Position numbers and translations under genes: made by a program. A stretch of DNA of 64,000 nt from Iphione sp. A-MEVVRFRX5 (lineage: Eukaryota), in contig OZ320321.1 in NCBI GenBank assembly GCA_976226885.1, positions 4,154,001 to 4,218,000 of the forward strand, read 5' to 3'. Within the stretch, counting starts at the first letter, position 1. Each line of letters starts with the position of its first letter. Below are positions 30,363 through 57,491 of this stretch, piece after piece. The notes beneath the pieces were generated by a model. That model had not been told where the DNA came from. It saw nothing but the letters and a program-made list of their open reading frames with translations, and ran no database searches.

Positions 30363-30467
30363 GGGCGGAGGTTATACCGCACTCTGCCTGTCCCCAGCCA
30401 ATCAGAATCGAGTGCGGGAACATTAAGCCAATCAGTGACTGGCAAAGCTCTGTGCCGGAGGATATAA
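30363..30467 (+). promoter_or_regulatory. Candidate internal Pol II promoter in Gypsy A (GC box, two CCAAT boxes, TATA)
   Basis: GGGCGG 30363, CCAAT 30398 and 30428, TATAA 30463; Kozak-context ATG at 30732. Confidence 0.55.
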
Positions 30468-33037: not shown

Positions 33038-34500
33038 TGTGACGTTCTACACTCCCCTTTTGGAGGAGTTTTTAGATTTTTTTTTTTTTGGGAGGATGTC
33101 ACTTTCCTGAGGGATCGATAGGGTGGGTATTGTGGAGCAAAGCACCTCCTACCTTGGGGTTTTCTTCTCGAATCCTGGATTCCTTTCTTCTTCTGTGGTC
33201 CAGGGCGGCCTCCAGTCCTGGATCTTTTAGTCTTGAATCTGATGTTTTCTTTTTCCAGCAGGAATTAATAAAGTTTTGTGTTCATACACCTGACCTGTGT
33301 TGGTTGATTTTGGTTTTGAAGAGGCTTAAGATTATCACCCTCACAGAGTAATGTAGAAGATGAAATAGAGGAACGAGGACCCTGAGTGTAGGGTTTCGAG
33401 GGCTTTATTCCGAGTACATCAGTTGGATGATATGCTTTTCCCCTCTGACAGTAGAGCTAAGCTGGCAGACGTGTGGCAGGATGAACTTACATTTGGTGTC
33501 AGGTTCGGGACTTACGAGGCAGACCAGAGCCTGTGGATTCAAGTCCTGGGCAGGAGGGTTGGAGTCCTTCTTAGTCGGGAGTCCTCCCGACTGGGCAGCT
33601 GCCAGTAAAAGACCGGAGGATAGGTGGTTCCTCCAGCAGGGCTCTGGCCTGGTCTCGGCCACTCAAAAATGCTGGGTACTGAATCTCTTATTTCGCAACC
33701 CTAACTGATTTTAAAACTCTCTCTCCTCTGGGGAAGATGTGCAGCCTCTTTATATACGTCCCTGGTCCCAGGCTCTCCCTTCGCATTGGCTGAAAAGGGG
33801 CTATTCTGATTGGACGGTTGGGGGAGAGAACTGCTCTGATTGGCTCACATAAGTAAGCACCCCACGTTGAGGCCCAAGAGATCAAAGGGATTCCAGGTAA
33901 AGACAGATGGGGGCCCTAGAAATTGCACAATCCGTTGGTGAAGACTAATGAGGGCCATAAACGTCAGTTTAAGCTAAAAGTGTACCAGAATTCTCATAAA
34001 GTTTGTACTCAGGGCCATAACGCCTGTCAGTGGCTAGGAAAGATAATTGGATGGGTGATGAGGCAGGAGTCCAGATCCTTTGGAAAGGCAGACATCCGGG
34101 TCTAGCTCATTCAAGGGAGGAACTCGGACCGGAGTCACAAAGACAGGAATTTGTTGAGTATGCTGGACACCCAGAAGTAAGGAGAAAATATTCTTCACCT
34201 GTCAGATTCCTATCAAGTTGAGTTATTAGGAGATAGGAATCTCTTTTGATCTGGTGACTACCCTTCAGATGAGTTGCGAAAGAGAGGGATTACTCACACC
34301 TGCTTAGATTCCTTTGAGTTGCATCATAAAATGTTGGGAATCTGCTGACTGTCTTTTTTGAAGGGAACATTGGTGTCCCTTGAGTGGGAAAGGGTGGGAC
34401 GGGTATATAGTAAATGCTGAGTCGGCACAGAAGGCTCAGATGAGGTTGAATTTGCCTTCCCACAATGGAGTCGATGTTTAAGGGAGTTGTTGATCTAACA
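33038..34500 (-). repeat. 3' LTR of element B (~1.46 kb)
   Basis: Colinear with 57493-58961. On the minus strand: three CCAAT boxes (~33785-33843), TATAAA (~33750-33757), AATAAA (~33404-33409). Confidence 0.95.
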
Positions 34501-34519
34501 CCCTCCCAAGCACTGAAAA
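34501..34519 (-). other. Polypurine tract region of element B
   Basis: Minus strand TTTTCAGTGCTTGGGAGGG abuts the TG of the 3' LTR. Confidence 0.6.
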
Positions 34520-35703: not shown

Positions 35704-37752
35704 TTAAGCAGGATCTGGAATCCCGAGGGAGAAGGTACAGGGCCCGTTTCTGTAGATTTCGCTTTGCAGTATCTTTTGGATGGCGTCTACATGATCAAGG
35801 AGCTCATTGTCCTTGGGAGGCAAGGTGGGCCCAGGTCTATGTGTCGCTCCCAGCAGGACCGGTGTTGCCCTTGCTGCCGGTGCTAGGGCAAGGGACAAGG
35901 TAAGGGTGTTTATCTTTTGAAAGAGGTGGATAAGGCCAAAGAGAAGGAGGAGGGTCACTGCAGAGTGAATAGAGTTCCATGCCCACATAATGGGGGTAGC
36001 CACAGTTCGGGCTTGACTGGAAGTCCAGTTTGGCCAGTATGCCATTTCCTTCTCCTGTCTTATCCTGATCTGTCGAGATTGTTCTATTTTGCGGGCTATT
36101 TTGTCAAGGTCTACGCCTGTGTGATCGGGGAGGGACTGCGACAAGTTAAATAAGGAAGAGGAATTAGATGTGAATATCAAACAGGAAGAAGTCCTTGAAA
36201 GTAGCAGAGGCAGTGAAATTTGGTAGGGAGAGATTGAAGGCTGTGGCAGCTGCTAAATTGATGCCGTTGACTGGCATGATTGCTCGTTCTTTGGTACAGA
36301 ACGCTGATGGAGGCATGTTGTAGGGTCCCACAGTGAGTGAGCAGTTGCACGGGGGTTTATATGTACAGAGAGGACAGTGAACATTAGTGGTTTTTCCTAT
36401 CAGAGTGTCTTCACCGGGTGTGGACCCGCTGATATATTTACTGTATCGTTTAGCCTTTTAAGGTAGGGTGGCATAGTGTCATTGGGGTGAACTGTAAACT
36501 GGCACCGGTGTCTTACAAGATCATGTCTATCATAGAAGAGGCCAAAGAGCAAGTCTGGGTTGCTTAGACATTAATAGGGGGTAGGGTTGTACAGGTGAGG
36601 ACATCATGTCCTTCACAGAAGGATAAGTCATATGGTTCGAGCTCTATAAAGGCAGACTGAAGAGGGCAGACTGCCATGTAGGCTGGCATGCATTGGATCT
36701 TAGTATATCCATGTGTTGTGGTAGTGGGGAGGGGTGTGTTAAAAGTATGAACATGATAAAGGTCAAACTGATCGCCGGGAGTACCTATTGGTACTGAAAC
36801 ATGAAGGAATACGTAATGATTGGAGTACATGAACTTGGTAAGCACGTGTTAGTAAAAAAAACCTCGGTCTGAAATCATTATATTTTCGCAGCCTTTTAGC
36901 TTAATGTTAATTTTTGCTAATCCCCTAGTGAGTTGTGCTGGAGAAATTAGACTGCCAGGAAGTCGCCCTATGCATAAGTCGTTAATCGCCAAGCAGTAAT
37001 GCAAGTACTGCTGTTTTGCTTGATGGAGAGTGTTGATTTTTAGTAGGAGAGTGGAGAAATAGTGAGTTGCCTCTGTTACTGCGTCTATAAGGCTTGATTG
37101 ATTTTGGAGAAGGTGTTCAGTTTGCTTTGCTATCTGGTCAGCCTGGTGAATTATGTTGGTTATGGCCTGATCATGGCGGTGTGTCTGTTGGAGAATTGCT
37201 TGGACGGTAGTGGCGGTACTGTTGGATAGTTGTGCCAGTTGGTCCTGCAGCTCTCCAAAGCGAATTTGGCTGTTTACAGCATCTAGGGTGTCAATTCATT
37301 TAGCCAGAGCATGAATATCATCCATGGTTGCCGTTCCAAATATGTACTTGGATAGAGTTCCCATGAAGCCAAATGGTGCTCTTGGCTGTTTTCGCGTATC
37401 GTATGTAGTTGGAGCAACCAAAAGGTTCTGGAACTGCTGGTTTTCATCCACCGTTTCCGCGAAAACAGACATATATTTTATGAGTCCTGCATATGAAAAC
37501 TTCCAATCTGGAACATGCCGCGTGCCATGAGCAAGGTAAAGGTTTGATGGGAGGCTTGATGAGCTTATGGTGCGGAAAGGGGGCTGGTCTTGGTATGACA
37601 AAAAGGAGATCCACGCTTCTCGTGTTGACGAGGATTGGAGTTGACATCTTTTCGTAGAGGACGCCAAAGTTTTGTCTTAATATATATTTAGATCATGCTG
37701 CTGGTGTTAAGACAGCGACGAGTAGAAAAATGACTTGCGTCACGATAGTAAC
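35704..37752 (-). pseudogene. env: env-like class I fusion glycoprotein (errantivirus env / baculovirus F-like)
   Basis: Signal-like VIFLLVAVLTPAA; RQNFGVLYEK; basic cleavage site RKQPR followed by APFGFMGTLSKYIFGTATMDD; heptad region; Cys-rich ectodomain; TM-like AVTLLLLFGLIHLF; stops/frameshifts. Confidence 0.82.
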
Positions 37753-40700
37753 CTGGAAAGAAATATTTCATTGTCTCTATGCCTTCAGATTGTTTTTTTT
37801 TTTTGTATCCGTCTTAAATGACTGCGGTGGTTCCTTGAGGTGTTATTATGCCTTGAAGTGGTGTTGTCCTAAGTGACTAATGTAGTGCCACCCAAGCACT
37901 GAAAATTCAAGTTCTACCACTGAGCTTTGAGGAGAAATAAACTCTAACGCTTTGTGAGTATATTTTCGGAGAGTGCTTCATTTGACTGAAGGCAAGAAAG
38001 GGTGCAGGGGGGGGGGTGTGTAGGTGAAATTGAGTTTTGGGGCAGTAATGGGGTTCTTATAGATCTTCTTCAAGATTAAAGAGAGTTTGTGCTGCCACTT
38101 CTTCAAGGGCTTGCTGGGCTGCTCTATAGTTCTTGAAAGGGCCATGATGGCCTGTTTGTGCACGTAGTGCCAAACAACAAAGATAGTCCCAATAGGGGAT
38201 GTCATTCGGAGCGTAGTTTGGAGCACGTTCAGTGTCCAGATATCGGACGAGGTCTTCACGAGTGCGTGCTGCAATGTTTGGTTTAAAGACATCTAAAGTC
38301 AGGGTGTCCGTCAAGTTGAGGGCTCGGCCCGTTAAGGCATCCCTGTAGAGGGTGGAATTACGGCTTTTACGACGGAGGAGATTTCTGTGATGAGTGTCAG
38401 TAGTGTAGTCTCGCTGGATGGTAGGCCAGGAGATAGGGGGGGTAATATCAGGCGGGCATTCGTCAGTGAAGAAGTGGATGCCTTCACATGCAGATTCCTC
38501 TACGGCTCATTTCTCATGCCACATGAGCCCGATATGCGGCTTGAGCTTCTTCCTGGAGAAATGGTCTGTCCAGAAATTCGGTAGAGAAGACTCTTTTCAC
38601 TTTGGCGTGGGGAAGTGTTGGATGAGGGGGAGGGAAATAATTTGTGAAATGGTAGCCTGGGCGGTATGATAGGGGAATAACATAGGTAGGTTCAGGTGGG
38701 GTGGGAGAGGTTGCGCTAGAGGATGGGGGTGTGGGGGATGCAGTGGGAGAAGGCGAAGTACTAGTATCATGTGAGGCATCCGTGCCATTGGAAGGGGTTG
38801 GTCAGAAAGGTTCCGAGGCTGAACGAGGTGGGTAAGAGTGATTTTCAGAAGGGGGCCAGGTAGATTCAAGGGAGTGCGACTGAAAGGTAGGTCCTGGCAT
38901 TGGGTCTGGAGAGGGGGAGGCGGGGGTTGAGGGGAGGCTTGGGTTGTATGACGTAGATATGGGTGCCGAATTGAGGGATGAAAGAGGGGTAGAATGATTG
39001 GAGAGCGAAGAAGTGGGAGCGGGGATTGAAAGGTGGAGGGTGCCGTTCAAAACAGAGGAAGACGGGTAGATTGGGAGGGAGAATGAGGAAGTCTGCATGG
39101 ATGCTGGCTAAGGGAGGGCAAATCGTGGCAGGGGAAGGTCCAGAGGGCTAGAATGGGGGTGGGGTAAATGGGGATGGAGAGGGGGAACTATAGCAAGGTT
39201 ACGGGGAGGGCGAGGGTCTGGGAGAGTGGTTTCAAGGTGGGCCTGCTCGTGTGAAAGGGGGAGAACGGGTGTATGAGAGGGTCGAGTGACTGAGCGGGGG
39301 GATAGCATTAGTCGTGTTCTTCCCCCATGAGGGTGTCTAGTCGCCAGATATCGGTTAAATTCGTTGAAGAAAACGTTGAGCAAATCGTCAGATGGTTGAA
39401 AGTCCCTAAAAACAGAGAGGATATGTGGTAGTTCCGGTCTGAATCATTTAGTTGTAGATTCAAGATCAGGAAATATGTTTTTGGGTGGGTGATGGGAGTG
39501 TATGGGGGCAGGACAGTCTCTTAGGGAAATCGGAGAGGTCTTACATTGAGTTGGGGGCGTTGACTGGTGAGGGGATGGGTGCCTTTGGGGGGGGAGGGTA
39601 ACTGTAAGGAAAAAGGAAGGGGGGGTCAGGCAAGGTGGATCGGGGACTGATAGAGGTAGGTTCCAGGTGGTATCCACAAAAGAGTAAGGCCTACCTCAAA
39701 GCCATGATGGTTGTTGGTGATTGAGGTGTTTGTTGATTTGATGGAGATTTAGCCTGGGTTGATACGTGAAGAATGTGTTCCGTAATTCCTGGTTTTAAAG
39801 TGAGCATGAAGGGTGACTCGAGGAGGAGGGCGTTGGTTGACGCAATTGATATAGAGCGCTAAGGCCGAGAATATGGATTGAGAAATCCAAAATTCTGAGT
39901 TCCAAAAAGGCTGGATGCAAAGGTTTGAGTGGTGTCGGGCAGTTTTCACGACAAAGCTTATATACTTATCGCTAGGGGATAGTCCAGGATAGGGGAAGGA
40001 GTGTCCATTGTAACAGGGGTGAGAGGTGCACTTGGTACTAGCGAGAGTGAAGATGTTTTATGGTAATGAGCATGAGATAAAAAGACGATTAAAAGGGAGT
40101 GATATAGTATACCTAAGTCAGTGAAAAAGGTGGGGGAACCATAGATCTGTGGTCGCGAGTCGCCAAGGAACACGGCGGTAGGGGGAGGTTGTCATAACAG
40201 GTGGTAACGTGTTGTGAGAGGGGGAGATAGCAGATAATGAGCAGGAGGACTGTGTTGGTCGGGCAGTAAAAAGGCAAGGGGAGGGAGAAAAATAGTCTTG
40301 AAAGAAGTATAGTTTGTTCTCGACCCGGGATAAAGGAACCTACAACGATCATATGGATGGACGAGAGAAGGGAACAGGTGAGTGTCGAACAGGTGTAAAG
40401 CCGGGATGAGAATGGGAAACAATTATGCTGTACCCATGACAGTAGGTAAGGGGCTAAGTATTCTCTTGGGGTGGGTGAGAGACGGGGGTATCGGGGGAGG
40501 GGGCATAGTAAACGGGACAGATTGACCTGATTGGGATGGGAGTGAGGCTACATTTGTACATTGGATCGTTGGAGCTGTGAAGGAGTAGCTCACGGGTCAA
40601 GAGAACGCATAATGGACACGCTAAGAAATGCTCTGCGACAGGTGTGGGTGTTTGCCCGGAGCGTTGGGGTGCTCCTGGGTCTAGTCGGAGAGGGGGGCTT

Positions 40701-41930
40701 AGCGCCCCCAACTGCACTGAAAGGTGAGTGGTAATTTCTTATTTGAGGCAGGAAAGGGTTGGAGTTGGTTACATGGGGGGAGGAGGGAGGAAGGGAAGGG
40801 GCTGGGGCTACTTATCGGTACACAAGTTTTTGTGGTTGAAAAAAAAGGGGGGGGGGGAAACGGTTTCGAGAGGGAGTCTATGAGTTTCTTAATTTTATGT
40901 ATATGCTTAAAGTGTGGAAGAAATAACTCTTTGTTTGGGTAATGACCTAAGTGGATAGGAAACTGAGATTAATCGCTAATCAGGGGGGTTCAAGGATGGT
41001 TTTTCTGATGCTGACGGAGGATCGCTGTGAACTATGAGGGCAGGTCGCAAGGTCAGCATTATCAGGATGCCTCACAAACTGAGCTAATCTTGGGGCGAAA
41101 TCCCTGCAGCGGGAAACACATCATTTGGCCTTTAGGACCGTCTGATTCCTAGGATGGTAAATCAGAGCCATTTGGGAGTTTAACGTGTTCACAGACGATC
41201 GTGTTGCAAGACTTTAGTTTGTTTTTGTTTATAGGATTCCTTGGTGTCAAGTATGCATGATAGGGAGAGGAGGGGGTTCGTCGCAGCTTGATAGTTAAAA
41301 GGCAAGCAAAGAGAATTAAGGGGTCACAGGAAACCTCAAGAGATCATGGCGACAAAAGTGGAATTGAACTGTCGGCATACTAATATATCAGAAGGGTGGG
41401 GGAGGGTTTGGAGGTTGTAGCCGGGAAGACCACGGTTTTAATGGTGAATGCAAGTAAATCAAGTGAAATGGTTGTAAGGAAGGGTCCTGCAATTGGGAGT
41501 TCTGATCGCTGATATCACGACTCGGACTTATTGCCATTTCCAGTAAGTAGAGACAAGATTCAACAGGGGAACAGGCTGGGAGTGCGGGTGAGTGATGACA
41601 ATTCAAAAGGGCGGTTCTTGTGGTTGAAGTCTATAAAATTTTATACCGAAAACGAAAGAAGTGGGGGAAAGGAAATAATGCCGTGGGGTTGGGAAATAAT
41701 TGCAGTATGGTTTACTACAATTCCGTCCGTAAGGAAGGGTTGTGTGCCATAAGTAAAGTAGAGGGAAGGAAAAGAAGGAGTATAGGGGTGTCATTATTGC
41801 CCTTGTAATAGGTTTTCCGGCCTTTCGTGAAGAAAATTATCTGGTTTCAAGGCAATTAATTGTATTGGAGATGGGAATACTCCGATGTGTACGCCTGCAG
41901 TGCAATTTGTTTAAAAGATAAGAAAGTGGC

Positions 41931-42285
41931 AAAAGCCGTTCTCCGTAGTGCGCGACAGGTACTTCCTCCTTTTGGGGAGGACTGCCTCTTTTTCAAAGGA
42001 GGCTTCAGGCATGGGGGTATGGCACTTGCTGCTTGCCCTATGGAGGGGGCCAGCGGGAGAGAGACTTGAGCGACCGTGTCGAAGCCTGGCTGAAGGTTCT
42101 ACTGGGTAAACCTTGTCAGCATGTCCCGAGAGGTATGGCACTCGTTCATCGAACGAGGCAGACAATTATTTCCTTGGTTTAACTCTCCCGTTCTGCACCA
42201 GCTGGTCTGGGTTTCGAACCCTCTCGCCCCTGGCATTCATACGCGGGGAGGAAACGTCCTAACCGCTACACCACGGAGATCGGCT
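41931..42285 (-). ncRNA. Pol III-type RNA unit 1 (~355 nt, VA/EBER-like architecture)
   Basis: A box TGGTGTAGCGG, B box GGTTCGAAACC; 17-bp terminal stem AGCCGATCTCCGTGGTG / CACTACGGAGAACGGCT running into TTTT. Confidence 0.72.
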
Positions 42286-42794
42286 GACAGGTGTAGTGTA
42301 AAACTTAGAGCCAATTGTGCATCTAGGACGTAAATAAATCATGAGATGGCACATCAGTGGCGCGCGCGTGGTGACGTCACGATTCGGACCCGGTTACAGG
42401 GCGATTTTAACTGGGTCAAGTATGGTTCACCGCTAAGTCTGAGGAGGGCGCCGCAATGTAGGCCCAGTATCCACGTAGGGGAACACATGTAACTGTAGAT
42501 ATGATGAGGGCGAATGTATGTTTTGAAGGTTACCTATAGCTAATTCAATAATGAAATGGTATAATAGTGGCGTGGAGTCAGATGTTTTGCAAGTTGTAGA
42601 GAGTAAAAGAGTAAGTATTTTCAGGCCTTGGTTATGTGGAAAGGAGGAGGGGAAGGGTGACGGGAGTGCTTTGCCGACCTGTGTTGTAAACTGTTGTGTG
42701 TGTGTATGGAGGGTGATAACGGCGGTAACGTGGCAGATCAGAGCCCAGTGGAGGGTTGGTGATTCGACATTATTTTTTGGTGGTAGGAGAAGAC

Positions 42795-43225
42795 AAAAAT
42801 GCCTTTGGTCCCCATGACAGACACCTGTCTTGGGTAAGTCTTTCAGTGCTTCTCTTCTTTCCTTGGGGAGGATCTGGTGGGTGTACACGCGCATACATGG
42901 CCACTTGGAAGGAGGCAACTCCCTCTCTCAACGAAATCTGTGAGTGCTCTGGACTTACAGCACTGGAGCTGACGCAGGCCTGCAGCTGAAGCTTCTACCA
43001 GCAGTAGTGATGAGGAGGTGGTGTGGAGTACACCTGGGTGGGTCTTTTCTGACTGTCATCTGCTACTAGACCCACTTCTTTATCCATGCCCATCGTGGCT
43101 GTGTCGCTGTTCGACGGAGGAGAGGCAGTCCTTGGGAGAGGCCGGCCGTGGGACTCGAACCCACATCTGGCTATGCTGCACGCATCAGGTGGAGTGCCCT
43201 GCGTTCTGAACCATGGGGACCGGCT
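42795..43225 (-). ncRNA. Pol III-type RNA unit 2 (~430 nt, tRNA-like head, terminal stem, T5 terminator)
   Basis: 5' AGCC-GGTCCCCATG pairs with 3' CATGGGGACC-AAA-GGCA followed by TTTTT; T-arm GTGGG TTCGAGT CCCAC. Confidence 0.65.
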
Positions 43226-44479
43226 GAGGTAGGAATGCCACATGCTTAGGGTGAATACGTGCGGGGGGGTAGTTCTCTTTCGAGCTGCTGGGAGGCAGCA
43301 CTGAAAGGCAATGAGGCCAGGTCAGTTGGTCGGTCCATTTTTAAGGAGGTCAGCAGCAGTTTCGCGGCCCAGGGTAGGCAAAAATGGTTGGAAAAGAGTA
43401 ATTTTTATGGCCTACAGAGGATAAAAACTCAGCCGAATCCGTAGGAACTCGTGCCGGCCTGAACTGGGGGGTTGCATGGTGAAGACACCTTTCGCAAGGG
43501 CTTGAGAGATGAGTATGGACAAGACAATGGGGGTGAATCTCCAACTCGAAGTGCCATATGGCCAGCTGAGTATGTTTGAATAGGGTGCAGTTAAAGGCCC
43601 CCGAGAGAATCCGAAACCTGGTTGACGGTTCTCTTGGGTAAGTCTTTTCCGTTGTCACCATAGACCCCCTTTGTGGTCCCCATTGCAAATCAAAGAAAAT
43701 TTCCCGCTCTTCCGTCATCCTTTACCCGTTCAAGATGGGTTAGTTCCTTTCCACAGTCCACGCTCTAGGCAGTGGTAAGGTGCGTCCAGTCGGCGGCCAG
43801 TTAGCGGCCAGTTATAGCAGTGCAGGGGTCTACCCTATTCCTAGGTGTCATAAATCTGTCATAATCCTGGAGGGTACAAGGGAGATAGTGCACTGAGAGG
43901 TTGGCTTAGTGCAGGTAGACGGCATATAGGGAGATGGAATGTCTTTCCACCTGAAATGCTAAGTGGCCAGTAGGAGAGTATATAGTCCGGGTGCAAGAGA
44001 GTAACAGTAGTACAGGAGAAGGAGCTGAGGCCACTTGAGAGGGAATGAGGTGAGTGTTAAGCGTGAAGGTAGGTTCTACAAGAAGGGGTATGAGGATAGT
44101 AGATGTAGAATGTAAGTCAGAGGCAGGTAGCCAGAGAGATTCAATAGAAGCCGTGCGTAGAGAGAGGGGTGTGTCACGGTGACGCCGGAACGTGCGGGCA
44201 AATATATTCAGGCTGATTGGTAGCTGAGCCTAGTCAATGTTGAGAGATGCGGGGTCTGGCTTGGGTCGGAATTGCGCCATTCGGTTCTAAGTTAAAGTAA
44301 ATATTTCGAGCGTGCGAGGTTTTATCTTATGCTTAATCTTAACCTCAGATATGGCGTAAAGAGGGGTTTTTGTAATTTTTTGCTTTTATTTATTTTTTTG
44401 GCGGGGACTTCTCAGAAGCCACAGTCCTTTTTGTTTTCTTTTTTGTTTAGGAACGAGGGGAGGGGGTGTCATTAGTGTT

Positions 44480-45772
44480 CATTTTTTTGTTGTTGAGACA
44501 ATAGAGAAAGGCGGGTCGGGGGGCAGTATACAAATGTCGATTTCCTTATTGGGCGGGATCCTCTTCCTCCAGGTCGCGGAGGTCCTCCATGCTGAGGGGA
44601 CGGTTGACTGTCGTGGACACCGCCCGGAATTGCTGCCTGGGGAGTACCCGCATGTCGTTAAGCAGCCTGTGTCGCCAGGTCAAGAAGAACATCCAACTCC
44701 TGCTGGTCAAGGGTGCGGCGGCGAGCTTGGTGCCGGAGGGTTTCTATGTGGAGGATGGTGGTGTTGTGTGCGGAGAGCTCGTCCTCCTCGCGCAGGTTCC
44801 AGTCAGCGGGGGTTCCTGGGCGTTGGGCCCCCGACAAGAGAAAGTAAGGCCTATCCCTAAGGGGCCCTAAAGTGTCTGCGGTTATCGTCTGCCCAGTAGA
44901 TATGGCCTCAACGGTCGCCAGGCTGAGGGAGGCGATGTTTCTCTGCTGCTGGGACCAGGCTCGCCAGTCTGGGGTAATGTTGATACGTACGGGTCGAGTA
45001 GGCGGGTATCGTGCCAGACCAACATAAGGGCGCACAGTCCCTTCAGCAATGGCCTGAAGCCACTGGTCAAACAGGGTGACAGGGTGGTTGGCATCCTGGG
45101 GTGGTGGGACAGGTCCTTCGGCAGGCTGATCCCTCCGAGTCATCGTCAGAATCTAACCGTCATCGTTGTCGGGGAGGGGAGCCCGGGGGTGGCGCAGCTT
45201 GAGCTCTAGACGGTCCAGGTTGTGGTTCTTCATCACTCCTCCTCCTCCTGCCTCTGCTGACGCCCTCTGCGTCTCCTGGTGTTTCTCTGTCGCAGAGGAA
45301 CAGGGTCTCCCTCTCGACCCCACCAGGCGTTCATGAGGTTGCGAACCTCCATGCGTGCAGCCTTGGGTGCCCTTTGGGCCGGCAACCTCCACCCCGCTGA
45401 GTCCAGCCCAAAAAGATGGTGAAGGTTGGGCACACACAAGTGTGCCGCTGACACATGAAAGCTGTGGACATGGCTCTCCCAAGCCGTGTAGTCCCTCAAA
45501 TAAGCTTTGCCCTCGCACCACAGGCATGCCATATATTGCCACATTCTGGTTCCTCATACAGGCAAATGGTGCACCCTTCGGAGATGACGGTTGAGGTTTG
45601 ACTGGGTGTTAAATAGTTTGTGCTGGCAATGAGTGCAGCGGAGTCCTTTCGCCATTACAGATGAAGAGACGCTGTTAAGTGGGTTTACGTTCCAGTTCAA
45701 GGGTTGCTGGGAGTGAGATAAGTTTGTGTGACGTGGGAAATTCAAACTCGAGACGTACGTGGTTCGAGACAT
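44480..45772 (-). pseudogene. Element B accessory ORF: two C2H2 fingers followed by an unknown domain
   Basis: CTHC-x13-HLRRVH, an in-frame TGA, then CLWC-x13-HVHSFH. A frameshift leads to NLDRLELKLRHP, which is in frame (one stop) with ORF 44658..45143. Confidence 0.6.
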
Positions 45773-45967
45773 ATGTGGAGACTTTCGGTCTCGTGACGGT
45801 TGTCATTTGATTGTGTTTTGTTTTGGAAGGGAAGTTCGTTGTGGACTCCACAGGGGTTCCATAGTCGTGCGTGAGCTCCCCTAAGAGGTGATGTGCTATG
45901 TTCTGTGTCATATCCTGGGCGAACTCGCTGGGGTGTTGGTGAACCTCATTTCTTTGGCGGTGTCTTT

Positions 45968-46063
45968 GAGACCGACGGGGAGACTCGATCCATTACAGGA
46001 TGAAGATCTACGTCTATAGCATAATGCTCTTACCACTGGGCCACTGGGCCGCTGGGGCCGGCT
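45968..46063 (-). ncRNA. tRNA-like Pol III-type unit 3
   Basis: Starts AGCCG; A box TGGCCCAGTGG; B box GATCGAGTC; GTTTTAC 12 nt upstream as in unit 1. Confidence 0.5.
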
Positions 46064-46691
46064 GGCGAAGGGAGGGTAAAACTCAGAGTGGCTTTAGAGG
46101 CCAAGTATGGTAGGTCATGGAAAGTAGGGCAGTTGTTACGTCAGAGCGGTGTCGGTGGGTGTACGAGTATAGGGACAGAGTCAGAGAGGCATTAAAGGGG
46201 GCGCCAGAGGCAGTAAATACCGTGGTCACAGTTCAAATGTTATGGGCCTGGCCTGAGATGCGTTAGCGAGGTAAAGTATTATGCTGATGGGGAAAGTGGC
46301 CTGAAATGAGGTAATCTTCTTAAAGGAGGGGGGGGGGACGAAGTCAGGAGAAGGTGACTGGGGGGTGGTGAGGTAAACACCATTTCTATGTGTGAATCCG
46401 TAGATTAAGTACCAGTTATGGTATCTCAATTAAATATTTTAATCCTGACCACAGGTTATGCGTGGTCGGGTGTATATAAATAGAGTGCACCTGAAGGGCG
46501 GTGGTATGGCCAAAGCTTAATCACTAGACTTCCTGGGAGAACTCTCTTGAGTGCCAGTCGGCCCTCATCGGGGTCACATATGAATATTCAAACTCTGGGT
46601 CTTGCTTCCTAATTGTAGTTGCAAGACAGCACATATAGTCTTTTGATTTTAGGGCATAAGGGGAAGTTCGCGTAGACGGCGACGTTGTTGT

Positions 46692-47042
46692 TTATTGTAG
46701 ATTGTATTCACGGCCTTCATGCAAATACTCTATAAGGAGGGCTACTAAGCATATTTGTAATAGTGGAGATTCCAAGTTAAAGAATAATCCCGCTGGATGA
46801 TAGTCGTAAAGTCTCCAATGAGATATGTAATCAGAGAGCCTGAGAATCATCCTATACCGCATATAGGTTGTAATGTCAGGGTGTCGCAGGCCTGTTCCTA
46901 CCTTGTAAAAATGTCGGAGGAGAGCCAATACACAGTCTGATAGGACAGGGGCTCCTCCATACTGAAGGTGTTGTTTCCTCTGCATATATTGCCTAAGGTT
47001 AAGAGATCTGAAGAGGACCGGATATCTCATCTGAGGCCACAT
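46692..47042 (-). CDS. Accessory ORF P3 (116 aa from MWPQMR, unknown family, shorter)
   Basis: APVLSDC...GLRHP...FFNLESPLLQ; splice acceptor 2 nt before ATG at 47042. Confidence 0.66.
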   Translation of the reverse strand: MWPQMRYPVLFRSLNLRQYMQRKQHLQYGGAPVLSDCVLALLRHFYKVGTGLRHPDITTYMRYRMILRLSDYISHWRLYDYHPAGLFFNLESPLLQICLVALLIEYLHEGREYNLQ

Positions 47043-48527
47043 ACCTAAAAAGGGAGGGATCGGGGGATATGCACAGTGATCCGTGTTGATAGTGTACATG
47101 AGTGAAAGAGTCGTGTATCCTTTCAGGGGCTGGGGTCGGCAGAGAGGAAAAAGGAGGGGGGGGGGGAAACAGATGATGAAAACCGGGCTGGTGGTTGGTT
47201 TTCATTAGGGTATTACTTGTCATAGAATTTGTATATGTTGCTTTTAAATGCTTGTCGGTCTTACGCCCGATTGTTTGATGTCATTCCCTTTTTTTTTTTT
47301 TCTCTGAGGTCGTAATCGGGGCTGCCTGGAGCCCTGATGAGGCAGGGGCCACTTGGCCTGAGGCAGAGGAGGGGCGCTTAACAGGTAAGTAAGAAAGGTT
47401 ACATGACTGTGGTAGCTTTAACGTAATTATCCTCTTGGTCCATTATTCTGGAATGTCGTTTATGGTGAGGAAGGCAGAGGTCATATTATTAAAGGTGGGG
47501 GGGGGGGGCAAGGGTGATCCTTCATATTGGTGCTTTTTAATGTTCTGTCTTTCACCCTTCTTCTAGAAGTCATGGTGGAGGAGGCACTACCATCTCCCGG
47601 AGAGAGCCTCCCTGAGATGGAAGGGGTGGGGCTCCCCAGACAAGAAGTGGGGGCCCTGCGGCTGGCGTGGGTTCTCCACAGCGGTGAGTGGACAGTTTCT
47701 TGTTTTTGGTTGTTTGCCGATTCCATTTCCTTTTCGCATAGGTTGGGTTCACAAAAAGGAAAGGGGAGCCAATTTTGGAAGGAGCGGGGGGGGGGGGTGG
47801 GGGGAAGGAGAAGTAGGGGGGGATGTTATCCCACCAAAAGGGAAGGGGTAGCCTCCGTTGTTTTGTTTTGGGTAGAGTAACGTTATGCTACAAAAAGGGG
47901 GGGGGCATAGGATATCATGTGTGATCCTGGTGCTAATATTTTTATTTCTGTATGTCTTTTACAGGAGTCACAGTCATGCGGGAACACCCAGAGGAGGGAG
48001 AGCGGGGGCTATGTCAGCGGCGACGCCCGGCAAGAGAAGAGCTCCCCTGCTAAAAGATTCATCATTTTGCTTGAAGTAGATGGGAGTAGGTTTTAGTAGG
48101 GGGAAAGGGGGGGAATATTCATTTTAGTTCAAGGGGTATTTTCATAATCATCCTTGTAGTGCATTGTCAGATCCTTTATATTTATTTTTGTACTTTTTTC
48201 CTACATATATATTTTTATCATTAAACCTTCCTTATTGTTCTTAATCCTGCTTGCGTTTTTGTGTGATGCCTCCTGACTGACGTCCCTCTCCATTCATCTG
48301 ATGTGAGTTTGCAGTGGAGCCTTCATGTTTTTAGGATAGTTTTATAAAACTCGAACTGCAGTAAAGGAGGTTGCATTTTTTTTTATAGTATACGGGTGTT
48401 AGTTCCTTGAGATGTCCATGACTATTAGGAAGTACCCTCGGCATGTTTTCTATATCTCCCCTTTATTACGTACTCCTTTATCAATAATGTGCAATATAAG
48501 CATGCCTCAGAATCATTCCCTAGGACT

Positions 48528-49079
48528 TTACGGCATGGTAGAGAATGTTAGCATATGGGGGGGGGGGCATGGTGAGGAGAACAGAGTACCAACAAGAAAG
48601 CGGGGTTGTGTGGGGTAAGTGGAGAACCTATTCCTATAGATGAGCACCACTCGTACAGCTGCTTCGCGGATGGGGTTGTTGGATTTTATATAACAGAACG
48701 CCGAAAATTGTTTGTGAAGTGCAAGCATAATCAGGGTATCCCACGAAGGCAGAAAGTGTCGCGGGAGCCGAGGCTTGTTATAAGTACGGAGATAGTGTTC
48801 TATGAGAGTAGACAAGGGGATCTGAACCAGAGTAAGGTCCAGGTTGAAGAAGGAAGATCGCCAAGAGGTCAGTTGGTCAGAGACCGATGCAAAATTGTCA
48901 CACGCAAGGTGTTCCAGCAGAAGATGACGGCCCATAGAAGAGAGTGAGGGGTGTCGCAGGCCCGTATGAGTTTGAAACAAAGCCCTGACAAGTTCATAGA
49001 TGCAATCTCTCAACGCAGGTTGTTTCCCTTTGCATAGCTGATCTGCCCTATGTTGCAGGCGCCCTCGACATCTGGACAT
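48528..49079 (-). CDS. Accessory ORF P2 (183 aa, unknown family)
   Basis: Intact; QPALRDC...GLRHP...FFNLDLTLVQ...PSWDTLIMLAL; splice acceptor 2 nt before ATG. Confidence 0.72.
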   Translation of the reverse strand: MSRCRGRLQHRADQLCKGKQPALRDCIYELVRALFQTHTGLRHPSLSSMGRHLLLEHLACDNFASVSDQLTSWRSSFFNLDLTLVQIPLSTLIEHYLRTYNKPRLPRHFLPSWDTLIMLALHKQFSAFCYIKSNNPIREAAVRVVLIYRNRFSTYPTQPRFLVGTLFSSPCPPPHMLTFSTMP

Positions 49080-49206
49080 ATCTAAAAAGAGGAGAACCCG
49101 ATTGTTGGCTCTATAAAATAGTGTAATGGGGGTTAGGTGGAGTCATTCTTTTGTCCTTTTTCCTAAGGGAAATTCATCTTTATGTAACCTAAGTCAATGA
49201 CTAACC

Positions 49207-49758
49207 CTAACTTTCTGTTCTTACTACTTTGCAGGAGGGCCAGGCAAGGGTTTCCCATTCATCCGCGGAGACAGGGTTTCGCCTAAACAAGCCTGCAGTG
49301 CAGGATTTCGGGGTTGGAGATCCTGTTCCCTTAAGATAGGTCTCAATTGCCTTGATAGCAGCTTGGTTCCTCCAGGAAGGGCCATAGGGAACCTGACATC
49401 GTTCTTCACAAAGAGCCAACATGATGAGAGTGTCCCATGTCGGAAAGAATATTGGGGGTAAGTGCGGTTCTATTCCATGTTCCAGGTATGTTTGTATATT
49501 CCGCCTTAAAGCCAGCTGTACAAGAGGTAGCTCAAGCTTGAAAAAGTGGGAGTTTCGGTCAATACCGGCCATGTCTGGTTTGTTAACACACAAAGTGAGT
49601 CTGCATAGGAAGTCCCTTCTTTCTACAGAGGAGATGCAGGGGTGTCGCAACCCCTGGGTTGGTCTGAATAGAAGAAAAGAGAGGTGTGGAATGCAGTCTT
49701 TCAGTGTAGGAAGTCTACCATTTCTTAGGACGCGCTCTCGACTGTAGATGGAGGCCAT
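49207..49758 (-). CDS. Accessory ORF P1 (183 aa, unknown family, paralog of P2/P3)
   Basis: Intact; motif LP.L.DC...GLRHP...FF.LEL.LVQ..L...PTWDTLIMLAL; splice acceptor 3 nt before ATG. Confidence 0.72.
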   Translation of the reverse strand: MASIYSRERVLRNGRLPTLKDCIPHLSFLLFRPTQGLRHPCISSVERRDFLCRLTLCVNKPDMAGIDRNSHFFKLELPLVQLALRRNIQTYLEHGIEPHLPPIFFPTWDTLIMLALCEERCQVPYGPSWRNQAAIKAIETYLKGTGSPTPKSCTAGLFRRNPVSADEWETLAWPSCKVVRTES

Positions 49759-50658
49759 AGCCTACAGATTAAATCAAATCAAAACAGAACTCATAAGGAG
49801 AATACACGAAGGCATGGTAAGGGGGTATATGGCTAGAGGGACCTAGTCTGGGGGCGTAAATTAGTAATGTATACTTGGCTTGGACTCGAGCTCCTTGGCT
49901 GAGTTCGCAGCGTGTGGGCTCTACTTGGCTCCAGCCTTCGTATATGGCAGTAGGGCGATGGGGAAATGCGCTGGAGGGAGGCGAGGAGGTAGCTAAGCTC
50001 CAAGTCTCCCCCGGTGGTGGTCGGTGCCCTTCTGCATGTGAATGGCTTATGACCGCTGTGTTACGCACTCAGGTAGGAGGCATGGCAAAGAGAGAGAGCA
50101 CACGAGTAAGACAGAGCGAGGCAAGGAGACGAAGTAGCGAGAGATCCACCCGGATCTCTGCCAATTAACCTTTTCCTTTCTAATGACTTGTTGATTTGTG
50201 TGCACTGTTCTAATGACCTGTCTTCTCCCTACTTTCTTGTTGCATCATGGTAGCATGGTTACAACTTCTCAGCATTGTTCATGGTGTTACTTAACTAGAG
50301 TTTTCCTGGTCTTCCCTGACGTAGGAGGCGAGGATTTCCCTCTTAGGGGGCGTGACCCCTTCCCTATATCCTGGGGTGCTCACCCGGTAAGGGGGCACTC
50401 CTTTTCCTTCTTTTCCTTGGATGCGTAGAATGTTCGGCTGATCTACGAGGGGATAATCTTTTATCTCCTGTGCAGTGTCTTTGCGACGCTCCTATAAGTA
50501 GTCTACATGTACTCCTCCTTCCACCACATCTCCAAAGAGAGTGGATTTACGATAAAGTGGGGTGAACTTATAAAGACTGACAAATATTAAAAAAGAACTG
50601 TGACAGTAATAAAGGGAGTCCGCTTCTAGGAAAAAAAGGGGGTATAAGAACCTCTTCA

Positions 50659-53600
50659 TCAGTGTCCCTTTTTAACGAATAATTTCCGAGCAAGAGACTT
50701 CCATCGAGATGTAACCAACTGAGCAGGGGGAGAGGCTTGAGGAGTTGATTTTGTGGCCAGAGTATGGACAGAGGACCAAAGGCGACGACTGCATCTTAGA
50801 TTCAATGCAGGGGGCGGGCTCAGAGGTGTTCCAGAGGAGGGTGACTCAACCTTGGAGGTCTGGGGGCCTGGGGGTCCAGGATAAATAAAGGGGTCATTCC
50901 CCTCAGGATCCTCTTTGGGGTTCTTCCAAACAATTATCTTCTTTGTTCCCGGAGGAATGGTGAATTTCTCAAGTTTGACTACAGGATTCATGTCGTGCAG
51001 TTGATTGGCCTCACTAGGGGAGGGCGATTTACGAGTTCGTTCCATAAAGCGAATCACACCCTCATCTTTTTCTGTATCGGAATCCTGAGTGTCAGGGGAA
51101 GAAGAATCAGAGGAAGTCTGTTCCTCTACCTGTGTATTTGAGGGAGACTCCTCCTCTTCCTGTTCCAACCCGGGCAAGCCAAATCCGACATCAAAGTCCT
51201 CAGGATCAAGTGGTTTATCCTCCGTCACAAATTTGTCAGGGACAGCCACTTTAGTGGATTCGGGGGAGGCTGGCAGATCCTCTTCTCCCAGGGAAATTAG
51301 AATTGCCAGAGAAGGGTCTTCTTCTGGGCTGGTGCGCATAGGAGTTTTCAAGGGGGGTAATAACTGCGTCCTCCTGGGAGGAAATAGGGCTGACTGAGCC
51401 ACATAGTCCCGTGGATTGGGGACTGTCCGGGGGTAGGTCTTCGTGGGAAAGATTCTCATTATGTATTTCTTTGTTAATCATAGGCCCCACAGTCCTGTTC
51501 ATTTCAGGCGGCTGGTGGTGACTGGTCGAGAGAGATGACGGTTTGTCTGGAGACATTTCAGATAAACCGTAGAGGGGGTGTGGAATTCTGTAATGGCATA
51601 GGGCCCATGATAGACTCGGGCCAGCTTCAGCTTGAGGAAAGGATCCCTAAGCTGTGGCATGTAAAGCCAAACCATGTCTCCCTTCTTTAGTTCAGGGCTA
51701 TAGGCCCTGTCATCAAATTGGTCCTTCATGACGACAGAGTATTTCTCTGCAGTCTCCTCAGCAGCCAAATTAGCCTGATGTTGGGTATGGAGATGCTCCC
51801 CCAACCTTTCCTGGACCGACATTGGTTCATCCTCAGGAAGAGGAACTGAATCCATTTCTGGACGGCACGGCTCATAGCCATTCAGAAGAAGGTAGGGGCT
51901 CTGACCGGTTCTAGGGGCCTTAGTGGTGTTTAATGCAAAGCAGATAGATGGAAGACAAACGTCCCAATTGTTCTGATTTTTACTTACGTAATTTCGAAGG
52001 ACTGTCAGAAAGGAGCGGTTAGCCCTTTCCACTAACCCTGAGGTTTTGGGGTGACCTGCTGTAGTGAACTTTTGTTTCATTCCATTTTGTCGGCAGTAGT
52101 TCATAAAGCGGTCCGATATGAAAGCTGAGCCGTTGTCCGATACTATAGTGTTGACGGTGCCAAAACAGTAGACAACATGTTCTTTAAATTTGGAAATGAG
52201 AGTGTCTGCCCGTAAGTCCGGTTGGGCCTTTTCCTGTTGATGGCAATCCCTCAATGGCATCCATACTTATGGTGTTCCAAGGAGTGGGAGCGGGGTCTTG
52301 GAGAGTGAGGGGGGGCCTAATCGGCCTGGTCATTCGTGTTGTTTGACAACACCTCACGCAGGTGGCATAGTAGTCATGTACATCCTCACTCATTCCTGTC
52401 CAAAACAAGGTCTCCCTCATTTTAGATAGCATTTTCACCAGACCTAGGTGGCCTGCATGGGGGGTGTCATGGTTTTGCTGAAGAAACTTTTCTCTAAGAA
52501 GACATTTTGAACAGAACACTTTGATAGAGGAAGAAATCTTCCTCTCTGAGAAGCACCCAAGCACCGTTTTGTCATCAAGAGGCTACCATACTTGATGAAT
52601 GAAACGGTTTGTTTACAAAAGGCATCGTTCCTTTGGGCTTCCAGAATCTCTGATAAAGGGATATGGGAAGATTTGAGAAGCCTTTCTGCTCCCGATTGAA
52701 GGACAAACTGTCTCTCTCTCCTCTTTCGATTGTTAGGCCCCTTCTTGGCAAGGAGGGGGTCCGTAGGTTTATCTTCAGAGGTGCCGGGATCCGGCATCAC
52801 TTCCACTGCTCCAGTGGGAAGAGGGGAGGGGGAGGATTTGGAGGCTTCCAGGGATATTTGTGACATGGGGGTGCGGTCTTTCTTGATGGGAACATTGAGC
52901 CTGGACAATGCATCAGGTACTGCATTGGAGGCACCTGGGACATTGGACTGTATAATTGAAGGGCTGAAGGAATTCCATCCAGCGAATCACCCTTGTGTCC
53001 TTGTGCTCCAAGGACTTGGTTACAAGAATGTGAACTAAGGGGTTGTGGTCCGTTTGTATACAGAACTTTGCGCCCTCGAGATAGACCTTCCAGTGCTTTA
53101 CGGCATAGAAAACAGCAGCCATCTCCTTGTCTGTGGTCGAGTAATTGAGCTGCACTCCCTGAAATGCTTTTGCCCGAAAGGCAACAGGTTGGATATTCCC
53201 TGAGTTGTCTCTCTGGGACAGGCTGGCGCCCATGCCGTAGTTACTGGCGTCCATGGCGAGAAAGAATTCTCGACCAAAATCAGGGTAGACGAGGAGTTGG
53301 TCGTCCATACATGCTTGCTTGAGTGTTTGAAATGCCTCCTCCTGGGTTGGGCCCCAGAGAAATGGAACATGTTTTCTAGTTAGGTCGTAAAGGGGCTTAG
53401 CCTTCAGGCCGTATTTTGGGATAAACTTTCGGTAGTACCCTGTCATTCTCAAGAATCGTCGCACCTGTCAGACAGTTACTGGCATCTTCATGTCCTGTAT
53501 TTTGGCAATGTTGTCGGGTGCTGGTCTGATTCCATCAGTCATGATAATGTGACCTAAAAATTTGACTTCTGCACGACTGATTTCACATTTAGAAGGTTTT

Positions 53601-54942
53601 AATTTAAGCCCGGCTGCAATAAGTCTGTCCAAAACCTGACCAAGATCTCTCATATGTCTCTCAAAAGTGGGAGAGAAGACAACGATATCATCCATATAGG
53701 CAAGGCAGATTTTGTACTTAAGACCGGACAGAACCATGTCCACAATGCTCTAGAAAGATGCAGGGGAGTTTTTGAGTCCCATAGGCATGGTCTTATAACG
53801 GTATTTGCCGGTGGGAGGCAGAAAGGCAGTCTTATCTCTATCCTCATCTCGAATGGGAATCTGGTGGAAGCCCTTTTCTAAATCCATTACCGAAAGGAAT
53901 TGAGGTTTGCCGTTGCCGACGGCATCAATTATGTCGTCAACTCGAGGAATGGTGAACATCTGGATGACTGTCTGAGTGTTTAAGTTCCAGTAGTCCACAA
54001 CTAACCGAAACTTACCATTTGGTTTAAGAACTAGAAACCTCCTGCCTTTTCTAATATTCCTTTGCTTTCCTAGTCGGAGACAATGCGATGAAGCTCATCT
54101 CTCATCATTGGCAACATACGAAAAGGTTGGGCTTGGGTGGGGGTACAGTCAGGGGTAAGCTCAATACGGTGTTGGACTAAGGAGGTCCTTCCAACCGTTC
54201 CATCAAGGGAAAAAGCCTCCCATCTGGAGTGAAGGAGCTGTTGGCAGATCTCTCTCTGCCTAGGAGTGAAATTAGACTCAGAAAGATCTACAGGGATGTC
54301 AGGGGGGGTTGGATGGGGTCTAACGGGGGGTGTTTTGTGTGAGAGCAGAAACGTCATAAGGAACTCCTTCAGTGAACAACCCAACTCGAAGACCTCTTCA
54401 CAAGCTTTGAGGCTTCTGAGAGTAGTTAAGAAGGGAGATGGGTACCCGGTTATTGTGGACTCTGACTAGGGTTTCCTTGTTGGAGACGACCGGCCTAGGG
54501 GTAGCTTTTAGAGTGTCCCTATACATTCCTTCCTCAGAGTCAAATGACTCCCCATTTCCCAGTATCAGTGCCCACACCAAGGTCTCAGACCTGGGCTGGA
54601 GCAAAATATCCACTGGCAGGATGACAGCGAAGGTCTCTTGAGGTTGGGGGGTGAAGAAAAGGTTGATAGAGAACTGGTGTAAAAAGGTTTGTCCCAAAAT
54701 GATGTCATAAGACAAGTTGTTAAGGACATGGAGTTGGACCGGATAAAGGAAATTGTCAATAGGGATTTAGATGTGAACGATATTGGTGGTTTTTGACACA
54801 GTGCCATTCGCCATAATACACTCAGCGTTTGTTGGAACAACCTTTAGGTCAACATTTTCTTTTCGCAGCCGCTCGAAGGCAACTTGACTCAAGCAACATC
54901 TCTGAGTGCCTGTGTCGATTAATGCTCTGAACAAGGCACCTC
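50659..54942 (-). pseudogene. pol: Element B pol (PR, RT, RNase H, integrase, long acidic/Pro tail)
   Basis: ALIDTG, YDIILG, VMDLEKGFHQI, MPMGLKNSPASF, LAYMDDIVV, MDASNYGMGA, HDTPHAGHLG..CVRC, VSDNGSAF, HPKTSGLVERAN, YHGPY, tail with LRCSRRL. Confidence 0.93.
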
Positions 54943-55832: not shown

Positions 55833-55834
55833 AC

Positions 55835-57472: not shown

Positions 57473-57491
57473 GTGCCCGGGTTCTCCACCA
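57473..57491 (-). other. Primer-binding site of element B (tRNA-Ala-like)
   Basis: Minus strand TGGTGGAGAACCCGGGCAC, 1 nt inside the 5' LTR; complementary to a ...TCTCCACCA tRNA end. Confidence 0.7.

Follow-up and report, generated by a model that had tools for sequence, protein, structure and literature searches.

The 64,000-nucleotide stretch of DNA analysed here (the window) holds a 25.9-kb element that is a decayed Ty3/gypsy retrotransposon with an F-type env, in which the acceptor-like sites just ahead of three accessory genes, P1, P2, and P3, exceed chance. Judged from the sequence, functional acceptors at these genes, with spliced subgenomic mRNAs, are the best reading, and splicing like that of complex retroviruses is probable for this gypsy element, which has an env and is of unusual size. 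The copy in the window is probably silent as a coding unit, and the expression programme set out below would be that of an active ancestor.

The hallmarks of Ty3/gypsy elements (Metaviridae) are in place (Table 1): a TG...CA LTR pair, a target-site duplication, a primer-binding site (PBS), a polypurine tract, and a pol with the order PR-RT-RH-IN. The LTRs are 95.5% identical across 1458 columns (K2P 0.047), and the PBS has one mismatch against a PBS labelled Ala in the supplement of PMC13524379. Pfam places RVT_1, RT_RNaseH, Integrase_H2C2, and rve in that order in pol, the protease region being recognized through alignment to P0002, a relative on a 468-kb contig with 65% identity in RT-RH, and the pol homologs carry gypsy-type domain sets; by both measures, pol is not of the retroviral type that defines Retroviridae. 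The element may work like a complex retrovirus, yet it is no member of that family. The gag frame is open for 181 codons from its probable start, and the gag region matched no gag family in Pfam. As in Errantivirus, env is F-type with a furin site, a fusion peptide, and a membrane anchor (motifs read from the sequence); it scores 38.7 bits for Baculo_F against a cut-off of 24.1, and its sole named relative is from a scallop. The compact gag-pol-env layout of Errantivirus, with env beside pol, is not found here: 12.9 kb and several ORFs part the two genes, and we therefore file the element as a variant rather than a typical errantivirus.

Table 1. Features of the element and candidate splice sites (slashes mark exon-intron boundaries)
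Feature	Position	Strand	Remarks
Target-site duplication, left copy	58962..58965	-	4 bp; same bases at both outer LTR ends
5' LTR	57493..58961	-	TG...CA, 1469 bp
TATA box, CCAAT motifs upstream	58199..58205	-	In both LTRs
Candidate donor D1	57959..57964	-	CTC/GTAAGT; forms no ATG at junctions; 3' LTR counterpart 33515
Candidate donor D2	57934..57939	-	AAT/GTAAGT; 3' LTR counterpart 33490
AATAAA poly(A) signal	57853..57858	-	3' LTR counterpart 33409
Competing U5 donor	57738..57743	-	CAG/GTTAGG
Primer-binding site	57480..57491	-	tRNA-Ala-like
gag, broken	55835..57434	-	Probable start 57434; assigned by position and CCHC-like motif
Candidate donor D3, inside gag	57024..57029	-	405 nt (135 codons, phase 0) past gag ATG
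pol PR-RT-RH-IN with tail, broken	50659..55856	-	6 stops; 10 segments in three frames against P0002
Strong acceptor-like site, candidate	50626..50642	-	Rank 4 of 1291; 33 nt past end of pol tail
P1 acceptor	49762..49778	-	3 nt ahead of ATG
P1	49207..49758	-	183 aa, orphan helical protein
P2 acceptor	49082..49096	-	2 nt ahead of ATG
P2	48528..49079	-	183 aa, 36% identical to P1
P3 acceptor	47045..47056	-	2 nt ahead of ATG
P3	46692..47042	-	116 aa up to a stop; family similarity runs on to about 46530
Zinc-finger "acceptor"	45707..45717	-	Rank 108, background level
C2H2-like ORF with acidic and C-terminal segments after it, broken	44658..45655	-	zf-C2H2_4 E 0.004, below cut-off
Extra acceptor candidate 44287	44280..44300	-	Rank 77; local shuffle P 0.015/0.006
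Extra acceptor 39406 and Pro/Ser-rich frame	38514..39420	-	Rank 5; 296 codons, 2 stops
P4, fourth paralog-like region	38057..38524	-	hhalign E 3e-4, probability 39%, 52 columns
env acceptor	37753..37763	-	Rank 44 of 1291
F-type env, broken	35704..37752	-	Furin-like site, fusion-peptide-like and membrane-anchor-like stretches
Polypurine tract	34501..34509	-	
3' LTR	33038..34500	-	1463 bp
Target-site duplication, right copy	33034-33037		

Viral contigs gave no match to A1, the RNase H piece, or an LTR 20-mer, and two matches at 33% to P0002; in metagenome contigs, 77 loci matched, with 47% identity in the best segment, and none belonged to this element's family. ARAGORN and Rfam found no tRNA and no RNA family. 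None of 17 candidate relatives of P1 proved to be one, and the single match to a P1–P3 profile, a tandem-repeat protein, was judged spurious. No accessory ORF that was tried reached the cut-off of a Pfam family or matched a PHROG, and the best hit in a PDB sequence search stood at E 0.86. A HEPN assignment (HEPN_DZIP3/DUF4559) appeared as an atlas lead of 0.88 for P2 only, with the families on 11–38% of members, and was not named for P1. Fold models of two accessory proteins were of low confidence (pLDDT 38 and 48); searched with them, the best match had Z 6.0 (rmsd 4.4, 88 aligned, TetR-like helices), HEPN was not listed, and there was no viral match at E <= 0.001.

The preliminary description had placed a splice acceptor directly ahead of each accessory gene and of env, and all five strings can be located on the minus strand, at 49762, 49082, 47045, 45707, and 37753. 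We scored AG sites with a hand-set weight matrix, whose frequencies are approximate and not trained on the host; of the 1291 AG sites in the internal region, it ranked P2 9th, P1 16th, P3 17th, env 44th, and the zinc finger 108th. An AG scoring at least 4.5 lies within 3 nt of only 3 of 378 ATGs, those of P1, P2, and P3, with the threshold set after the scores were seen (at least 4 gives 4/378, and at least 3 gives 5/378). When the 100 nt upstream were shuffled with dinucleotides preserved, an equal AG within 10 nt arose with P = 0.012, 0.007, and 0.0025 for P1, P2, and P3, respectively. The upstream AG-free zones span 27, 26, and 74 nt. Pyrimidines fill 9, 11, and 11 of 13 tract positions, counts reached by 24%, 5%, and 5% of 611 YAG sites, a cruder measure that lends weaker support than the matrix score. 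Sites scoring at least 4 are not enriched overall on the sense strand (23 vs 52 on the antisense strand), and eight AG sites score above the P1–P3 acceptors with no ATG close behind. The P3 tract could itself be coding, since the P3 frame runs open through the 53 codons upstream and has an in-frame ATG there, at 47099.

The claim of an acceptor before every accessory gene stands for P1, P2, and P3 and is not borne out for two others. The zinc-finger AG lies 51 nt from its ATG and is not significant (P 0.12–0.23), and at P4 the best AG within 90 nt ranks only 148 of 1290, which is no strong acceptor. Further sites came to light elsewhere. The candidate at 44287 is 6 nt ahead of an ATG from which a long, broken ORF region extends to about 42433. 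The site at 39406 opens a frame that stays free of stops for 98 codons in phase 1 (P 0.02 for the scarcity of stops) and does not begin with its own ATG, and it is the only one scoring above 4 among the 15 frame-opening AG/G sites (of 374). Reading the 39406 frame, or 41104, as the start of a further P paralog is unsupported (E 0.6; z -0.8).

That env has no ATG of its own holds in this copy, where the env frame becomes open 5 codons ahead of the AG; an ATG at 37771 nearby is in a different frame. The acceptor is followed in phase 0 by 19 hydrophobic, signal-like codons (mean hydropathy 2.2), and its tract has 8 of 13 pyrimidines, reached by 40% of the 611 YAG sites.

The two GTAAGT donors described in the 5' LTR are indeed present on the minus strand downstream of the TATA box, at 57964 (D1) and 57939 (D2). 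Two GTAAGT motifs fall within the 346 nt from TATA to AATAAA in both LTRs, against a shuffle mean of 0.05 (P about 0.001), a test for which motif and region were picked after the fact and in which the two LTRs are not independent. Both donors match poorly on the exon side, and their pairing with U1 is weaker than that of 57743 or 33152 (duplex energies of -5.7 and -5.4 kcal/mol for D1 and D2, vs -8.8 for 57743). The top-scoring donor of all, at 54015, was set aside as coding constraint, as it sits in a conserved RT motif common with P0002. The exon at D2 ends in AT, and any acceptor followed by G therefore gives an ATG at the junction; this is in frame at 39406 and out of frame ahead of P1, P3, and env. 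Scarcity of ATGs in the leader is not significant (P 0.26 and 0.08). Neither D1 nor D2 brings env into frame or to an open upstream ATG in this copy, and D3 in gag matches, donor and acceptor both being in phase 0, a match with a 1-in-3 prior in an element copy that has many frame breaks.

The preliminary description went on to propose alternative splicing from one shared LTR leader. Subgenomic mRNAs for P1–P3 are the part we would keep. A single leader for all five genes is unsupported, because the zinc-finger site is at background and P4 lacks an acceptor, because the ATG from D2 would be in the wrong frame for P1, P3, and env, because neither D1 nor D2 supplies env with an open upstream ATG, and because donors with stronger U1 pairing lie downstream in U5.

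Real acceptors could instead be fed by internal promoters with local introns or by donors outside a shared leader, which we consider unlikely. Oikopleura Tor3b/4b make env from an internal promoter (PMC4402516), and the AT-rich spacers of our element hold TATA-like motifs (48387, 48346, and 48211) and AATAAA (48467 and 44394). The RNAs from the Tor internal promoter, however, lacked splicing (PMC4402516). In our element, these putative signals fall in A-rich runs, none of the top 40 donors lies between 48.5 and 47.1 kb, and the P2 spacer is just 125 nt.

Alternatively, there may have been no splicing, the AG serving as the purine at -3 of the start context within pyrimidine-rich spacers, with reinitiation or internal entry downstream and an env that formerly had its own start. 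A G does stand at -3 of P1, P2, and P3 in the unspliced RNA, the strand is rich in C, the P1 ATG has a stop 8 nt ahead of it, and the other-frame ATG at 37771 is near env. Against this, P stays at or below 0.012 for each of the three in shuffles that keep local composition, the T-rich tracts and AG-free zones are not accounted for by start context, and P2 and P3 have no stop-start coupling. P3 (1.5 kb from the preceding ORF) and env (12.9 kb from pol) are probably too distant for reinitiation. We regard this explanation as quite improbable.

The three acceptors might also be one historical accident, in which a host gene was captured with the end of its last intron and duplicated, and the sites were never used by the element. 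P1–P3 are paralogs (30–36% identity) and their sites are therefore not independent; taken together as one occurrence, they have a chance of about 6 in 378. The upstream flanks are unrelated (z 0.2, -0.1, and -0.3) whereas the coding DNA is related (z 10.6, 3.9, and 1.8), and the N-termini are unequal in length, which suggests that the motif was retained as the sequence around it diverged. Such persistence after flank similarity was wholly lost would require selection, and we give this account very little credence. Spliced-leader trans-splicing of a polycistronic RNA, a reading that fits the unpaired acceptor 2–3 nt ahead of the ATG usual in trans-spliced genes, and that motif data alone cannot tell from cis-splicing, is similarly improbable given that cis donors exist and are enriched in R.

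Returning to cis-splicing, we propose that in the active ancestor, an env-bearing Ty3/gypsy element, the genes after pol were expressed in the fashion of a complex retrovirus. A single LTR-driven transcript would serve as genome and gag-pol mRNA, and alternative 3' splice sites just ahead of P1, P2, and P3 would give each of these genes a subgenomic mRNA of its own in which it comes first; 44287, 39406, and env were probably further 3' splice sites. Several donors were probably in use. Genes with their own ATG would take a short, ATG-poor leader ending at D1 (or the U5 donor), the ATG-less 39406 frame would gain its start codon from the AT of D2 and the G of the acceptor, and env would be joined through D3 to a leader encoding the Gag N-terminus. 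The R-region donors, with the AATAAA 81–106 nt downstream of D2/D1, may also keep U1 snRNP near the 5' poly(A) signal. Splicing, the pairing of donors with acceptors, and the poly(A) role are all inferred, and we hold the multi-donor, multi-acceptor programme as a whole to be somewhat favoured. More tentatively, and with rather less than even confidence, the element could be a "complex errantivirus": a Ty3/gypsy element with an independently evolved lentivirus- or foamy-like programme of five or more alternatively spliced mRNAs, with a tandem pair of R donors (one neutral and one forming start codons) that would also protect the 5' poly(A) site, and with a further donor inside gag, expressing an orphan, serially duplicated accessory family and env.

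Splicing accessory genes through several acceptors is characteristic of complex vertebrate retroviruses, and the retrotransposon cases compared below use one spliced mRNA or a polyprotein. If our reading is true, such complexity arose separately in gypsy elements, and elements of such size escape surveys capped at 10–14 kb. The element would also have to export a roughly 24-kb, intron-rich genome RNA, a need that makes P1–P4 and the zinc-finger ORF candidate regulators or host-defence antagonists.

Drosophila errantiviruses (gypsy/springer, ZAM, and idefix) share with the element a Ty3/gypsy pol and an F-type env without its own start, and to make env, the springer clade splices from an AU dinucleotide and the idefix clade from a site inside gag (PMC12992720). 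Exon 1 of the idefix clade is the first 340–400 nt of gag (PMC12992720 supplement), against 405 nt for D3. The Drosophila entries compared are about 7–8.5 kb; each has one spliced mRNA, and the donor follows the LTR (PMC12992720), whereas our element has 25.9 kb, 12.9 kb of extra ORFs from pol to env, several candidate acceptors, and candidate donors within the LTR. The "ancient" metazoan errantiviruses likewise combine gypsy pol with F-type env in non-insect animals, and an Ala-type PBS recurs in their annelid, mollusc, cnidarian, and Daphnia entries (PMC13524379). That survey capped regions at 10 kb and the distance between paired LTRs at 14 kb, limits that put the architecture described here outside its filters, and neither "splic" nor "accessory" occurs in its main text (PMC13524379).

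Complex retroviruses belong to Retroviridae and carry accessory genes mostly after env, whereas here pol is gypsy-type and these genes come before env. Orf a and orf b of walleye dermal sarcoma virus are duplicates. That virus (PMC3185748) and foamy viruses (PMC3694450) express accessory genes through spliced subgenomic RNAs, as is proposed for our element, and the major donor of foamy virus lies upstream of the LTR poly(A) signal (PMC3694450), like the candidate R donors here. Among LTR retrotransposons, Cer1 of C. elegans makes the accessory protein CERV from a spliced mRNA with acceptors conserved across species, but it has one accessory protein and no env, against three or four paralogs plus others here (PMC10309623). 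The giant gypsy elements Burro (planarian) and Ogre (plant) also exceed 20 kb and have extra coding capacity, with env-F homology in Burro; Burro, however, carries its extra domains and env in a polyprotein of roughly 5000 aa, and the separate ORFs of our element would be the opposite answer to the same expression problem (PMC6431247).

The window is AT-rich eukaryotic DNA crowded with retroelements, one of which is the env-bearing Ty3/gypsy element considered here. Its LTRs (1469 and 1463 bp) start with TG and finish with CA, a 4-bp duplication lies at both outer flanks, the PBS adjoins the inner end of the 5' LTR, and just before the 3' LTR stands a purine tract. The LTR pair is 95.5% identical (K2P 0.047), which would make the insertion ~2-12 million years old if a rate between 2e-9 and 1e-8 per site per year is assumed. 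The host site is the 3' LTR of another gypsy element, whose LTR piece is 87% identical across the insertion.

Pol domains occur in gypsy order. The nearest Pol relative, P0002 (1932 aa), is 65% identical across the RNase H piece, and aligning this copy to it reveals 6 stops and a break-up into 10 segments spread over three frames; the copy is therefore decayed. P0002 itself is an intact Pol on a 468-kb contig, and a Cys-rich region preceding the protease is common to both. The gene order ends with an F-type env (Baculo_F, 38.7 bits; cut-off 24.1), for which 1228 candidates yielded one relative, a Pecten maximus protein of 26% identity. The 12.9-kb gap between pol and env holds the paralogous accessory ORFs P1, P2 and P3 (P2 and P3 30-36% identical to P1), a C2H2-like ORF, other ORFs that are broken, and P4, a fourth region resembling the paralogs.

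Features of the element and of the surrounding window
Feature	Position	Strand	Remark
LTR element	58961 to 33038	minus	25.9 kb
Candidate donors D1, D2 (LTR)	57964, 57939	minus	GTAAGT
Candidate U5 donor	57743	minus
Candidate donor D3 (in gag)	57029	minus	GTAAGT
Start-stop unit	57941-57936, 33492-33487	minus
Strong donor-like site	33152	minus	3' LTR only
Candidate acceptor	50626	minus	rank 4
Possible additional ORF	50294-50659	minus	122 codons, one stop
P1; acceptor	49207..49758; 49762	minus	rank 16
P2; acceptor	48528..49079; 49082	minus	rank 9
P3; acceptor	46692..47042; 47045	minus	rank 17
Zinc-finger site	45707	minus	rank 108
Candidate acceptor	44287	minus	rank 77
Long broken ORF regions	42433-44280, 39749-41750	minus	no family match
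tRNA-like stretch	42205-42282	minus
Candidate acceptor	39406	minus	rank 5
P4	38057..38524	minus	best nearby AG rank 148/1290
Env acceptor	37753	minus	rank 44
Internal AATAAA	48467, 48186, 47946, 46696, 44394	minus	A-rich spacers
GC-rich gypsy element (host site)	24974-33033 + 58962-59105	plus	RT/RH/IN similarity at 27.2-29.4 kb
LINE-type endonuclease-RT ORF	20438-22939	plus	833 aa open
ORF upstream of LINE ORF	16237-17925	plus	562 aa; coiled-coil-like part, NADAR domain (36.8 vs cut-off 35.1 bits)
Direct repeat	6366-6636 / 15609-15879		271 nt, 96% identity, 9.2 kb apart; possibly ends of another element
Layered tandem repeat	1-6100		periods 3.3-kb, about 460-bp, 28-bp
Gypsy RT fragment	63474-63934	plus	window end

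The preliminary description placed a splice acceptor directly before each accessory gene, and every motif was located exactly as stated there. A hand-set, untrained matrix was used to score each of the 1291 AG sites in the element's internal region. Eight sites score above all of the P1-P3 acceptors, and sites scoring at least 4 number 52 on the antisense strand vs 23 on the sense strand. Rank alone is a modest signal; position relative to ATGs is the notable one. An AG scoring at least 4.5 lies within 3 nt of just three of the 378 ATGs, exactly those of P1, P2 and P3, and with 10 nt allowed between AG and ATG all three fall in the top 6. No other ATG-started ORF between pol and env is as long as P1 or P2, which were therefore not chosen for an acceptor motif. 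Shuffling the 100 nt upstream gave P values of 0.012 (P1), 0.007 (P2) and 0.0025 (P3), which are not independent because the genes are paralogous.

The upstream flanks of the three genes have no detectable similarity (z about 0), whereas their coding DNA is similar (z 10.6, 3.9 and 1.8), and their N-termini differ in length. Retention of the acceptors by selection is the simplest reading; a rival is a captured intron end, unused by the element. Two points count against the sites: a plain pyrimidine count gives a weaker signal, and the P3 frame stays open ahead of its start, where it includes another ATG, at 47099. The P1-P3 acceptors are likely to have been functional in some form. The claim does not extend to each accessory gene, since the zinc-finger site is at background level (P 0.12-0.23) and P4 has no good acceptor, so that the earlier observation is confirmed in part. 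Three further candidates emerged, at 50626, 39406 and 44287 (local P 0.015 for the last).

Two GTAAGT motifs lie between the TATA (58205) and AATAAA (57858) in both LTRs (shuffle expectation 0.05, post hoc P about 0.001). Their exon sides match weakly, and U1 pairing is poorer at D1 and D2 (-5.7 and -5.4 kcal/mol) than at 57743 (-8.8) and 33152 (-9.2), the latter in a place where the 5' LTR is missing about 10 nt. The D2 exon ends in AT and thus creates a start codon wherever the acceptor it joins has a G next to it. In this copy the new start codon does not match the frame of P1, P3 or env, but it does match the 98 codons open behind 39406, a frame that lacks its own start. Frames of this kind lie behind 15 of the 374 AG|G sites, among which 39406 is the sole one scoring above 4. 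Neither LTR donor gives env an open upstream ATG, but D3, 405 nt inside gag, and the env acceptor are both in phase 0; 19 hydrophobic codons follow that acceptor. Both phase matches are suggestive only, because chance alone gives a match one time in three and the copy is broken. Given an ATG at 37771, near env in another frame, env may once have had its own start. In unspliced RNA, an ATG overlapping D2 is followed immediately by TAA; in the 3' LTR this is the earliest ATG past the TATA box.

The reading we favor is cis-splicing of the LTR transcript, which would draw on several acceptors and two or more donors. Alternative splicing from a shared leader, as first proposed, is partly supported: the P1-P3 acceptors favor spliced messages, but the frames behind D2 and env speak against a single leader. 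As rivals, internal promoters could feed the downstream genes, as in Tor elements (PMC4402516), trans-splicing could act at the P1-P3 acceptors, or the genes could be coupled at the level of translation.

The accessory ORFs gave no family match in the Pfam, PHROG, relative, profile and PDB sequence searches tried. An atlas lead connected P2 to HEPN_DZIP3/DUF4559-containing clusters (0.88, below the tool's 0.9 line) and was not repeated with P1; the predicted folds were too poor to bear on it. The ATG of the possible additional ORF, which has no Pfam match, overlaps the pol-tail stop. Counting the long broken ORF regions, the element may carry seven or more accessory genes. Two of the internal AATAAA motifs lie right behind accessory ORFs. 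The tRNA-like stretch has an A-box/B-box look but was not called by ARAGORN or Rfam; candidate identities are the head of a SINE and a Pol III unit inside the element.

Spliced env, accessory genes and giant gypsy elements are each known. In the published articles searched (few subscription journals among them, so descriptions may exist elsewhere), we found neither a gypsy element with several accessory acceptors nor one that combines spliced env, accessory genes and giant size, as this single decayed copy apparently does. Env-F gypsy elements occur across animals in a survey that filters at 10-14 kb (PMC13524379). PMC12992720 reports three upstream partners for spliced env, namely a short exon, an AU dinucleotide and a position within gag; for four idefix-clade elements its supplement lets exon 1 span the initial 340, 355, 394 and 400 nt of gag, each marked 'Q' (not seen). 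The D1 and D2 candidates lie upstream of the poly(A) signal, reminiscent of foamy viruses, whose 5' poly(A) site is kept inactive by U1 binding to the major donor (PMC3694450); by analogy, the LTR donors might have such a dual role. Among other systems, Burro uses a polyprotein strategy (PMC6431247), Cer1 makes one accessory protein via splicing (PMC10309623), spliced messages are said to be the source of rotifer ORF3s (PMC5408684), and the accessory RNAs of WDSV are multiply spliced (PMC3185748).
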